Part shown: in pieces, positions 25,267 through 60,538 of the stretch
Position numbering within the stretch: position 1 is the first letter of the stretch
How the letters are laid out: every line of letters begins with the position of its first letter
Assembly: GCF_046105845.1 (NCBI RefSeq)
Contig: NZ_CP151004.1
Reading direction: 5' to 3' (one strand)
DNA from: Escherichia coli
GTDB taxonomy: Bacteria > Pseudomonadota > Gammaproteobacteria > Enterobacterales > Enterobacteriaceae
Length of the DNA stretch: 64,000 bases
Notes under the pieces: model-generated
Seen by the model: only the letters and a program-made list of their open reading frames with translations
Told to the model about the DNA's origin: nothing
Database searches by the model: none
Position numbers and translations under genes: made by a program

Positions 25267-25577
25267 TCGTGTTTATGACCTGTTAAAACTTCGCGAAGTG
25301 ATAGGGCAGTATAAAGGGTACAGTGTGAAATTCCAGACTCTTACCTGATTGATGATTTTCTATTCTCCCGTGATATTTATCATCCTGCATTGGGGGAAAT
25401 AGATGTACAAGCGCCATTTTGCTGTACAAATAACCTACAAAAAGCCCAACGAAATTAATTGCAAATAAACGAAGATTGCTGGAAATTATGCTGATGTTAA
25501 TTATTTGTGAAATAGTTAACAAGCGTTATAGTTTTTCTGTGGTAGCACAGAATAATGAAAAGTGTGTAAAGAAGGGT

Positions 25578-31845: not shown

Positions 31846-32011
31846 AATATGCTAAAAATCCCTTCATTTCTAATAACCCTATAATTAATCAACGAAACTA
31901 TAATGTTTCTAAAATTAGAATATAATTTATAAACATTATTTAAATGTTGTTACTTAAGTGTTACCGTTGATGCCGCGCAAATCTCACCTGCAATAAAGCG
32001 ACTAAAAGTAA

Positions 32012-57077: not shown

Positions 57078-58268
57078 GTGACCACCCGACAGCATTCGTC
57101 GTTTGCTATTGTTTTTATCCTTGGCCTGCTGGCCATGTTGATGCCGCTGTCGATTGATATGTATCTGCCCGCGCTACCGGTAATTTCAGCGCAGTTTGGC
57201 GTACCGGCAGGCAGTACGCAGATGACCCTCAGTACTTATATTCTGGGCTTTGCGTTGGGGCAGTTAATCTACGGGCCGATGGCAGACAGTTTCGGGCGTA
57301 AGCCGGTGGTGCTCGGCGGTACGCTGGTGTTTGCCGCCGCCGCGGTGGCGTGTGCGTTGGCAAACACCATCGATCAGCTGATTGTGATGCGTTTCTTCCA
57401 CGGGCTGGCTGCGGCTGCGGCCAGCGTGGTTATCAACGCTTTGATGCGTGATATCTACCCGAAAGAAGAGTTCTCGCGGATGATGTCGTTTGTCATGCTG
57501 GTGACGACCATTGCACCGCTGATGGCACCGATAGTTGGCGGCTGGGTGCTGGTGTGGCTGAGCTGGCATTATATCTTCTGGATCCTCGCTGTGGCGGCGA
57601 TTCTGGCTTCGGCAATGATCTTCTTTCTGATCAAAGAAACCTTACCACCGGAGCGTCGCCAGCCTTTTCACATTCGTACCACTATTGGTAACTTTGCGGC
57701 GCTGTTCCGTCATAAGCGTGTCCTGAGTTATATGCTGGCCAGCGGTTTCAGCTTTGCCGGGATGTTCTCGTTCCTGAGCGCCGGACCGTTTGTCTACATT
57801 GAAATTAACCACGTCGCGCCGGAAAACTTTGGTTATTACTTTGCGCTGAACATTGTTTTCCTGTTCGTGATGACCATCTTTAACAGCCGCTTTGTTCGTC
57901 GTATTGGCGCGTTAAATATGTTTCGGGCAGGATTATGGATCCAGTTTATGGTGGCGGCATGGATGGTCATTAGTGCGCTGCTGGGCCTGGGGTTCTGGTC
58001 GCTGGTGGTTGGTGTTGCGGCATTTGTCGGATGCGTGTCGATGGTGTCATCCAATGCGATGGCGGTCATTCTTGATGAGTTTCCCCATATGGCGGGAACG
58101 GCATCTTCGCTGGCAGGAACCTTCCGTTTCGGCATAGGGGCAATTGTTGGCGCATTACTTTCTCTTGCGACCTTTAACTCTGCATGGCCGATGATTTGGT
58201 CAATTGCATTCTGCGCAACCAGCTCCATTCTCTTCTGTCTGTACGCCAGTCGGCCGAAAAAACGGTGA
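57078..58268 (+). CDS. bcr: MFS efflux transporter Bcr (bicyclomycin/multidrug), 396 aa
   Basis: GTG start; 12-TM MFS profile; translation matches remembered Bcr. Confidence 0.93.
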
Positions 58269-58282
58269 TCTATTGCACAACG

Positions 58283-58307
58283 AGGAAGCTAAAAGGCTTC
58301 CTTTGTT
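58283..58307 (+). terminator. Rho-independent terminator of bcr
   Basis: aggaagc-taaaag-gcttcct followed by ttgtt. Confidence 0.7.
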
Positions 58308-58600
58308 GATGCATGTCAACCACAAATCTATCATTCCCCCGATATATGTTTATTTTATGTAAAATCAATTTATGTAAAAAGTCACATCATTGTAGTTAAA
58401 AAGGTTGAGTTAGATCGCAGAAACGGGTACATATAGCCCCGCAAACGTGACCACGCCCGCAGATATTATTTAAATCAGAGCCATAGAGGCCACGCTGGCA
58501 AGGCATCAATCTTTACGATCTGTATAAAGACGGATTGTTGATGATGTGTTAAAATTGATGTAAACAAATTGTGAAGTAAATGTGCTTCCGGGGAAAATAA

Positions 58601-58945
58601 GTGACTTCATTACAACTCTCAATCGTCCATCGACTGCCGCAGAACTATCGCTGGTCTGCTGGTTTCGCAGGTTCGAAGGTTGAACCGATTCCGCAAAATG
58701 GACCGTGCGGTGACAACAGCCTTGTGGCGCTTAAATTGCTTAGCCCGGATGGTGATAATGCATGGTCGGTGATGTACAAACTAAGCCAGGCGTTAAGCGA
58801 CATCGAAGTTCCATGTTCGGTGCTGGAGTGTGAAGGTGAGCCGTGCCTGTTTGTAAATCGCCAGGACGAGTTTGCAGCAACATGCCGATTGAAAAATTTT
58901 GGTGTGGCAATTGCCGAACCCTTCTCAAACTACAATCCTTTTTAA
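58601..58945 (+). CDS. yejG: Uncharacterized protein YejG, 114 aa
   Basis: Translation [18 protein letters not shown]...; convergent with yejF. Confidence 0.85.
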
Positions 58946-58948
58946 GCG

Positions 58949-60538
58949 TCAGCTCAACGCCAGTAGCTGACGCGTATACTCCTGCTGCGGTGCGGCAAAC
59001 ACGCGCGCGCACGGTCCTTGTTCCACTACTTCCCCTTGTCGCAGTACGATAACCTGATGACATAACGCGCGGACAACGTGCAAATCGTGGCTGATAAACA
59101 AATAGGCCAGTTGATGCTTTTGTTGCAATGATTTCAATAGTGTCAATATTTGCGCCTGTACCGTTTTGTCGAGTGATGATGTTGGTTCATCAAGAATGAT
59201 CAGCGAGGGCTTAAGAATTAACGCCCTGGCAATCGCAATACGTTGCCGCTGACCACCAGAGAACTCCGCCGGATAACGGTGGCGTGTTTCAGGATCTAAT
59301 CCCACTTCATGCATCACGGCTATCACTTGTTGTTCGCGTTGTGCGGCAGAAAGCGTCGGCTGGTGAACCCGTAAGCCTTCCTCAATAATCTGCAAAACGT
59401 TGAGTCGTGGGTTGAGCGAGGAGTTTGGATCCTGAAATACCACCTGAATGCGATGACGAATAGGTAACAGCTGGCGGCGATTTAAATTTTGCAGTGGCTG
59501 ACCGTCAAAGATAATGCTGCCCTGAGAATTAATCAGTCGCAGCAGCGCCAGTCCCGTCGTGCTTTTCCCGGAACCTGACTCGCCTACTAAACCCAGTGTT
59601 TCACCCGCTCGTAGCGTAAAACTGATGTTTTTCACCACCACATTATGATCCACAATGCGCTTCAAAATCCCTTTGCGAATGGGGAAGGCAACCTGAAGCT
59701 GTTCAACATCCAGCAACGTTGAGGCAGGTTCTGGCAATGGTACCGGGTCGCCTGACGGTTCACTGTTGAGTAGCTTTTGTGTGTAAGGATGAGTGGGTGA
59801 GGCAAATAGCGTAGCGGCGTTATTTTGCTCGACACAGCGACCGTTTTGCATTACCGCCACGCGATGGGCCAGTTTTCTGACAATGCTGAGGTTATGAGTA
59901 ATAAACAGCATACCCATATTCAGCTCGCCTTGCAGTTCGCGCAACAGCTGTAAAATCTGCGCCTGGACAGAGACGTCCAGTGCGGTGGTTGGTTCATCGG
60001 CAATTAATAATTCCGGTCGCGTTAACAGCGCCATCGCAATCATCACCCGCTGGCGTTCGCCGCCGGAGAGCTGATGCGGATAATCTGTCAGCCGTTTTGC
60101 CGCCTGGCGGATACCGACGCGATCAAGGCAGTTAAGAATTTCGCCACGAGCCGCTTCCCGACGCATCCCGCGGTGGAGTGAAAGCACTTCATAAAGCTGT
60201 TTTTCCAGGGTATGCAATGGATTTAATGACACCATCGGCTCCTGAAAAATCATGGCGATCTTATTACCGCGTACACCGCGCAACGTTTGATCGCTGGCAT
60301 GAAGCAGCGATTCGCCATGAAAACGAATATCGCCGGAGAGATATTCAACCGGCGGGGAAGGGAGCAGGCGTAAAATTGACAGCGCGGTAACGCTCTTACC
60401 TGAACCAGACTCACCCACCAGCGCCAGCGTTTCGCCAGCCTCAATCTGTAGTGAAACATCATTGACTACTGTGCGTACGGTTTGCTGATGGCGAAAACCC
60501 ACCGACAAATTTTCAATCGCTAACAGAGTTTGCGTCAT
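58949..60538 (-). CDS. yejF: ABC transporter ATPase YejF (duplicated ATP-binding domains), 529 aa
   Basis: ORF track 58949..60586; start set at ATG 60538 ([13 protein letters not shown]...); two Walker A motifs GESGSGKS. Confidence 0.92.

Follow-up and report, generated by a model that had tools for sequence, protein, structure and literature searches.

The direct repeat that lies upstream of yejG in Escherichia coli sits, with a probability that we put at about 0.78, in the distal of two operator regions through which ArcA-P controls this gene. The first of its two copies is one repeat of an ArcA box, the partner being a TGTTTA found 11 bp upstream. The sequence-only reading, made before the present analysis, had proposed an uncharacterised operator of yejG; a conserved cis-regulatory element is indeed present at this place, but it is a characterised one, lying in the region "yejG2" mapped for the oxygen-responsive repressor ArcA (PMC3798270), which a genome-wide study of this protein records solely in its supplementary tables. 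The present analysis contributes a phylogenetic footprint, in which the distal box is invariant over 25 or more genera of enterobacteria and keeps a constant distance of 83 bp to the -10 element of the promoter P2, together with one conserved repeat-like element, the second copy of the repeat, that falls outside the described ArcA spacing rules. The importance of this is modest and amounts to little beyond annotation tidying, with copy 2 left as a small loose end in ArcA site architecture, but the sequence-only reading had nevertheless recovered a genuine transcription-factor site.

The repeat pair and the promoters of yejG

The window, by which we mean the whole 64-kb stretch of E. coli DNA that was analysed, runs in the reverse of the K-12 orientation. 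In it bcr (57078-58268) is followed by a spacer of 332 bp (58269-58600) with a G+C content of 37.7%, compared to 52.0% for the window, and then by yejG (58601-58945, + strand), with which yejF is convergent. According to the open reading frame list and the RefSeq K-12 annotation yejG has a GTG start and encodes 114 aa; the product matches the Pfam family YejG (PF13989, E = 5.8e-51), and this is a conserved gene of unknown function.

Reading of the sequence and a pattern search place exact copies of TTTATGTAAAA on the + strand at 58354-58364 (copy 1) and 58369-58379 (copy 2), 15 bp apart from start to start and with 4 bp (TCAA) in between. The pattern search finds no further exact copy elsewhere in the 64-kb window, and a repeat finder detects a diverged third copy, AATTGATGTAAA, at 58553-64. 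Dinucleotide-preserving shuffles yield an exact direct repeat of at least 11 nt at an offset of 4-30 nt in 17 of 5000 cases for the spacer and in 12 of 5000 for its AT-rich core alone; the pair exceeds chance. The earlier description of an 11-mer present twice, 15 bp apart, in an AT-rich spacer of 332 bp is thus confirmed by the sequence, its composition and the shuffles. The same holds for the claim that the bcr terminator precedes the repeats, as a terminator-like hairpin, GAGGAAGC / GCUUCCUU, is found at the 3' end of bcr (about 58283-58304, + strand) with an RNA folding energy of -22.3 kcal/mol (z = -5.7). A simple terminator scan did not call this hairpin; compensatory changes in its stem preserve the pairing across genera, and it forms the upstream boundary of the regulatory region. 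Directly after it lies an FNR-type palindrome, TTGATGCATGTCAA (58306-58319), that is conserved from genus to genus, with the perfect form TTGAT-N4-ATCAA in Salmonella, Kluyvera and Klebsiella. It is listed as a predicted FNR site (score 14.14) outside the FNR ChIP-seq peaks and overlapping Fis ChIP-seq enrichment (PMC3688515, Table S6).

Two starts of yejG transcription have been determined by primer extension, at U00096.2 positions 2,276,299 (P1) and 2,276,419 (P2) (dPeak paper, PMC3798280, Table 1). The K-12 gene is NC_000913.3 2277893..2278237(-), the offset from U00096.2 to NC_000913.3 is here +1978, which we validated by finding published site strings at the computed positions, and the K-12 spacer differs from that of the window by four substitutions and no indels. 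P2 (+ strand) therefore starts at 58441, with a -35 hexamer TTGAGT (58405-10) and a -10 hexamer TACATA (58428-33) read from the sequence and separated by a 17-bp gap, and P1 (+ strand) starts at 58561, with an extended -10 motif TGtTAAAAT, likewise read from the sequence, at 58547-55. Neither mapped promoter was called by a simple sigma70 scan; the dPeak analysis of sigma70 ChIP data places only two binding events here, at 58428 and 58572 (PMC3798280). The 11-mers occupy -87 to -62 of the P2 start and both mapped starts lie downstream of them, so the 5' ends leave room for the operator that had been proposed. We rejected a third promoter, TTGATG-17-TATCAT (58306-34), which Ishihama placed ahead of the repeats: it is guessed from the sequence inside a SELEX peak of low resolution, only Escherichia, Salmonella and Citrobacter keep its -10, and dPeak resolved just the two events.

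The core of P2, AAAAAGGTTGAGTTAGATCGCAGAAACGGGTACATATAGCC (58398-58440), shows 91% conservation in the 25-genus comparison, its spacer and a GATC at 58413-16 included, which is far above what a weak sigma70 promoter needs. Published SELEX and ChIP-chip signals for sigma32 map to 58394-58408. At the P2 start, CGCAAACGTG (58440-58449) matches the left half of the PurR operator consensus; this match is not conserved outside Escherichia and is probably due to chance.

Two ArcA sites and the oxygen response of yejG

Park et al. (2013; PMC3798270) mapped ArcA across the genome by ChIP-seq and ChIP-chip, and their supplementary tables hold two yejG regions, the ChIP-chip region at this gene having been resolved into yejG1 and yejG2 (Tables S1/S2). 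The distal site, yejG2, is ATGTTTATTTTATGTAAAATCAATTTATGTA (U00096.2 2276484-2276514; window 58346-58376, + strand; Tables S1/S2/S4) and comprises the elements DR1, DR2 and a weak DR3, scoring 8.0/8.5/1.4 bits (Table S4), with an ArcA box of 17.6 bits at 2,276,511(-) (Table S1). Its ChIP-seq position, 2,276,488, corresponds to 58372 in the window. The proximal site, yejG1, is TTGTTGATGATGTGTTAAAATTGATGTAAACAAATTGTGAAGT (58535-58578, + strand; Tables S1/S3/S4/S6) and has four DR elements; its sequence, TTGTTGATGATGTGTTAAAATTGATGTAAACAAATTGTGAAGTG, extends from -26 to +18 of the P1 start, with DR scores of 8.6/9.7/9.8/5.3 bits, a box of 18.8 bits and ChIP enrichments of 8.2 and 8.5 (PMC3798270). 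The published strings of yejG2 and yejG1 are located exactly at the computed window positions, 58346-76 and 58535-78.

We rebuilt an 18-bp ArcA PWM from 114 boxes of Table S3 of PMC3798270, leaving out yejG1, and a single-repeat PWM from Table S4; an ArcA box is defined by two co-oriented repeats 11 bp apart centre to centre and by a score above 10 bits, the cut-off in use for the 18-bp box. The distal segment 58346-63 agrees with this in both sequence and spacing and scores 17.5 bits, compared to a median of 15.7 for the training boxes. The repeats had earlier been left without a match to a familiar consensus; motif comparison gives an ArcA box. At 16 bits or more, counting either strand, the 64-kb window has five sites, each a published target of ArcA: rcsD, mqo, two overlapping yejG1 boxes (18.8 and 18.7 bits on the rebuilt PWM) and yejG2. 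The strong boxes elsewhere in the window, ATGTTAATTATTTGTGAA (25494-25511, 21.1 bits) and TTGTTACTTAAGTGTTAC (31947-31964, 20.7 bits), are the published ArcA ChIP targets at rcsD and mqo, respectively.

Within the distal box, DR1 (58346-58355, + strand; core TGTTTA at 58347-52) scores 8.0 bits in Table S4 of Park et al. and 7.1 bits on the rebuilt single-repeat PWM. DR2 is the 10-bp element 58357-66, which scores 8.5 and 8.9 bits, respectively, and its core is the TGTAAA (58358-63) of copy 1 (+ strand). The two cores are 11 bp apart and lie at -94 to -78 relative to the P2 start. The functional period is accordingly that of TGTTTA and the TGTAAA of copy 1, 11 bp, and not the 15-bp periodicity on which attention had first fallen. 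The proximal site is stronger than yejG2, covers promoter P1 and includes the third TGTAAA copy; the TGTAAA-like motifs seen near 58560-58590 in the sequence-only reading are real and correspond to DR3 and DR4 of yejG1, the third copy being at 58553-64.

Expression and occupancy data tie yejG to oxygen and to ArcA. The gene shows an 11.9-fold change in an arcA mutant compared to wild type, which Table S6 labels as repression (PMC3798270, Tables S5/S6), and is likewise derepressed in a Salmonella arcA mutant (PMC3848847). Occupancy by sigma70 at yejG is 1461.7 aerobically vs 56.1 anaerobically (Myers et al. 2013, PMC3688515, Tables S2/S12), i.e. 26-fold lower without oxygen, and yejG is given as 4.0 among the operons differentially expressed between aerobic and anaerobic growth (same tables). 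As a single sigma70 peak over both promoters collapses anaerobically, we infer that silencing extends to P2 in addition to P1. Published data show, and the present analysis reproduces, an ArcA ChIP signal in vivo, the match to the PWM, derepression of the gene in arcA mutants and the anaerobic loss of sigma70. However, the 11.9-fold derepression is indivisible between the two sites, and the proximal one alone could explain all of it. Two further points speak against the distal site: ChIP occupancy is weak, with an enrichment of 1.9 seen in replicate 2 only of the two ChIP-seq replicates (PMC3798270), and repressors that work by promoter occlusion do not usually sit at -94 to -78.

At low oxygen the sensor kinase ArcB phosphorylates ArcA, and ArcA-P dimers bind co-oriented direct repeats with the consensus TGTTAA, 11 bp apart centre to centre. 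At yejG they would occupy both the four-repeat site that covers P1 and, ahead of P2, the distal box. The two sites would then jointly shut off yejG anaerobically, the distal one perhaps acting on P2 either by spreading toward the A-tract and the -35 or by blocking an upstream activator. The arrangement resembles the multi-repeat ArcA-P operators of Park et al. (such as icdA, acs, astC, trxC and paaA) in its co-oriented TGTTAA-type repeats 11 bp apart centre to centre, its 17.5-bit 18-bp box, its ChIP signal in vivo, its anaerobically repressed target and its extra repeat-like elements; a second ArcA site within the same intergenic region is also found at cydA, sdhC/gltA and nuoA. It differs from these operators in that the distal site is far upstream of P2 and not over a promoter, in its weak, single-replicate ChIP signal, and in carrying a strong copy 2 at 15 bp, outside the 11/22-bp spacings.

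A conserved 95-bp block upstream of P2

We collected 80 yejG loci, one per species, across the Enterobacteriaceae and derived a 25-genus alignment from them. About 75 of the 80 loci keep the 11-mer pair in the same 15-bp register, in genera that include Escherichia, Salmonella, Citrobacter, Kluyvera, Kosakonia, Enterobacter, Leclercia and Mangrovibacter; close relatives thus conserve the repeats, as the proposal of an operator supposed. Two blocks are conserved in the alignment, the first at about 58345-58440, which reads TGTTT(a/c)TTTTATGTAAAATC.ATTT(A/G)TGTAAAAAGTCACAT..TTGTAgTTAAAAAGGTTGAGTTAGATCgCAGAAACGGGTACATATAGC, and the second at about 58531-58600. The DNA between them is unconstrained (58441-58530, 41% identical), as is that preceding the first (58320-45, 49% identical). 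Within block 1, TGTTT (58347-51) and TGTAAA (58358-63) are invariant in 25 of 25 genera, and so are the G, T, C and C of a GTCAC at 58381-85 and a TG at 58391-92. The TGT of copy 2 is 84-88% conserved, with position 58372 alternating between A and G, and Klebsiella, Siccibacter and Franconibacter have lost copy 2 and kept copy 1.

In most of the 80 loci the orthologous distal box scores 15 bits or more. The bases between the repeats differ in Siccibacter, Franconibacter and one further locus (L075), and TGTTT and ATGTAAA are still 11 bp apart there; judged from the alignment, such fixed half-sites with changing bases in between are the signature of a bipartite protein site. Of 63 distinct blocks, 60 have the box at a distance of 83 +/- 1 bp from the P2 -10, and the 95 bp from 58346 to 58440 are free of indels across the family. 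This invariance, together with the fixed distance to P2, argues that the distal site is functional and not ChIP noise, and the footprint as a whole argues that yejG is under ancient oxygen-linked control from two promoters. The stretch between P2 and P1 is shorter by about 55 bp in some Enterobacter (L066, L068-L070) and by about 20 bp in Kluyvera (L029, L030, L034, L035, L037), and since both conserved blocks remain intact in these loci the P2 and P1 modules behave as independent units. Looping between the distal and proximal ArcA sites, which are 189 bp or 18 helical turns apart in E. coli, was discarded, as this distance differs between genera by tens of bp.

Several other explanations of the conserved block were tried and set aside. 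A structured RNA or small RNA does not fit, as conservation ends at the P2 start and the transcribed stretch 58441-58530 is conserved at a level of only 41%; an Rfam scan of 58100-59100 gave as its sole match a eukaryotic lncRNA model (E = 0.078), far below the gathering score. A palindromic reading, ATATGTTTATTTTA / TAAAATCAATTTAT, has a conserved left arm only. An ATG-TAA start-stop mini-ORF in each copy lacks a Shine-Dalgarno sequence, and both copies are upstream of both transcription starts.

Copy 2 and the alternative readings

Copy 2 (58369-58379, + strand) contains a DR-like 10-mer at 58372-81 that scores 8.9 bits on the single-repeat PWM. With its zero position at 58375 it is 15 bp from DR2 and 26 bp from DR1, and not 11 or 22 bp from either; no 18-bp ArcA box of at least 6 bits includes it. 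The weak DR3 of Park et al. is in a different register, and the published model leaves copy 2 out. Directly after copy 2 comes the GTCAC (58381-58385, + strand) whose G, T, C and C are 100% conserved, and 21 bp after copy 2 there is another ArcA DR-like element, TAGTTAAAAA (58393-58402, + strand), which has a single-repeat score of 10.6 bits and shares bases with the A-tract that immediately precedes the P2 -35. This element (zero position 58396) is the only in-phase partner of copy 2, and its GT is 72-88% conserved. Scores of at least 5 bits are reached by copy 2 in 20 of the 25 genera and by TAGTTAAAAA in 19. In all, four co-oriented DR-like elements of at least 7 bits lie within 66 bp (58340-58405), a count equalled in 61 of 5000 shuffles.

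That copy 2 and TAGTTAAAAA are extra ArcA half-sites in a second register is plausible, with the odds somewhat below even. ArcA-P protects 30-60 bp or more and tolerates varied architectures. However, the most conserved part of copy 2 is AAAAAGTCAC and not TGT, a pattern that could point to a different factor. More tentatively, the segment 58346-58440 as a whole may be a composite switch that goes beyond a plain ArcA box, with either a second ArcA register or a site for a second factor (CRP or another). If so, copy 2, GTCAC and TAGTTAAAAA would form an ArcA register offset by about 1.4 helical turns, which is undescribed for ArcA, or ArcA-P would compete with a second factor for promoter P2. 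For copy 2, a second ArcA register, CRP and other factors or nucleoid proteins are inseparable computationally.

The best candidate for such a factor, still an unlikely one, is cAMP-CRP: copy 2 would form the left half of its site, and ArcA-P bound next to it would repress P2 by blocking CRP (anti-activation). The sequence T(A/G)TGT-N6-TCACA at 58371-86 pairs a perfect TCACA with an incomplete half-site across a gap of 6 bp, and is centred at 58378.5, or -62.5 of the weak promoter P2. This is a helical-turn multiple upstream and near the -61.5 of class I CRP promoters such as lac, though one base off. The core matches at 8 of 10 positions in E. coli, a level that only 14 sites in the window reach, and at 9 of 10 (TGTGT...TCACA) in 8 of 63 distinct orthologous blocks, with a score of 11.2 bits for the G variant. 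The TCAC in the right half is invariant, and Klebsiella shows joint decay of the two halves (CGCTC...TCGCA). Additionally, genomic SELEX gives a CRP peak in the yejG-bcr spacer (PMC3105977), and ArcA repeats overlap a CRP site at paaA (Park et al., PMC3798270). However, with its poor left half (TATGT) the E. coli site is weak by a rough PWM, where its 7.5 bits correspond to the 20th percentile among the SELEX boxes and to rank 55 in the window. The spacer holds better CRP-like boxes, at 58264-79 (11.6 bits) and 58404-19 (10.0 bits), which are those that the SELEX authors chose, and conservation extends to the A-run separating the halves, for which CRP has no need.

A second group of alternatives assigns the block to nucleoid proteins or RNA polymerase (Fis, IHF or an UP-element-like A/T tract), the repeat being a by-product of selection for A/T-rich, bendable DNA. 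The neighbouring palindrome at 58306-19 was flagged as overlapping Fis ChIP-seq enrichment (Myers et al., PMC3688515), AATCAATTTATGT is, as read from the sequence, one mismatch from the IHF core WATCAANNNNTTR, and AAAAAGG (58398-58404) resembles a proximal UP subsite. We consider this improbable, as the base-specific invariance of G and T in TGTTT, TGTAAA and GTCAC over 25 genera is unlike selection on composition or bending, the ATCAA core is only 44-92% conserved, and neither yejG nor bcr appears in the IHF and H-NS peak tables (PMC3688515).

Slightly less probable again is a dedicated operator of yejG in which another transcription factor reads TGTAAA-N9-TGTAAA as a 15-bp direct repeat. Such a reader would account for the copy that the published ArcA model leaves unexplained, and its period fits none of the known consensuses that we compared. 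The 15-bp register kept in about 75 of 80 loci seems to favour it, but because the whole 95-bp block is indel-free this is not specific evidence for a 15-bp reader. Against it, ArcA DR2, placed 11 bp after the invariant TGTTT, accounts for copy 1 in full, and the two copies are under unequal constraint, with TGTAAA of copy 1 at 100%, TGT of copy 2 at 84-88%, and copy 2 lost in several genera that keep copy 1.

Other known boxes fit less well. The CpxR box is GTAAA-N5-GTAAA, and tandem GTAAA pentamers do occur upstream of yejG (58359-63 and 58374-78), but they are separated by N10, which places them on different helical faces. The TyrR box is a palindrome, TGTAAA-N6-TTTACA, and the TGTAAA at 58358-63 is followed after 6 nt by TTATGT, which matches TTTACA at 2 of 6 positions. 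The consensuses of EvgA, RstA, OmpR, Fis, IHF and DnaA misfit in spacing or symmetry. The PhoP box, (T/G)GTTTA-N5-(T/G)GTTTA, belongs to the OmpR/PhoB response-regulator family and shares the 11-bp period. That TGTTTA-N5-TGTAAA (58347-63), with its perfect first half-site in E. coli and agreement at 10 of 12 positions, is a putative PhoP box through which PhoP represses yejG is very improbable: yejG rises 2.7-fold (3.9-fold by qRT-PCR) in a Shigella flexneri phoPQ mutant (PMC5775216), but this effect may be indirect, the second half-site is TGTAAA in every genus, the first is TGTTTC in many, and both variants are common in bona fide ArcA boxes.

We add some minor observations on sites around the distal ArcA box. 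The best CRP-like box of the 64-kb window is GGTGATCTATTGCACA (58264-58279, 11.6 bits on the rough PWM), which overlaps the bcr stop codon, is one of two that Shimada et al. proposed for the CRP SELEX peak, and is conserved only in Escherichia, Citrobacter and Intestinirhabdus; another, GTTGAGTTAGATCGCA (58404-19, 10.0 bits), lies inside the P2 core and holds rank 7 in the window. The coding sequence of yejG contains GGTTGAACCGATTCCGC (58679-58694), a predicted GalR-type operator (PMC5110547). A Cra ChIP-exo site has also been reported inside yejG (bioRxiv 10.1101/080929), and another study finds yejG to be Cra-repressed.
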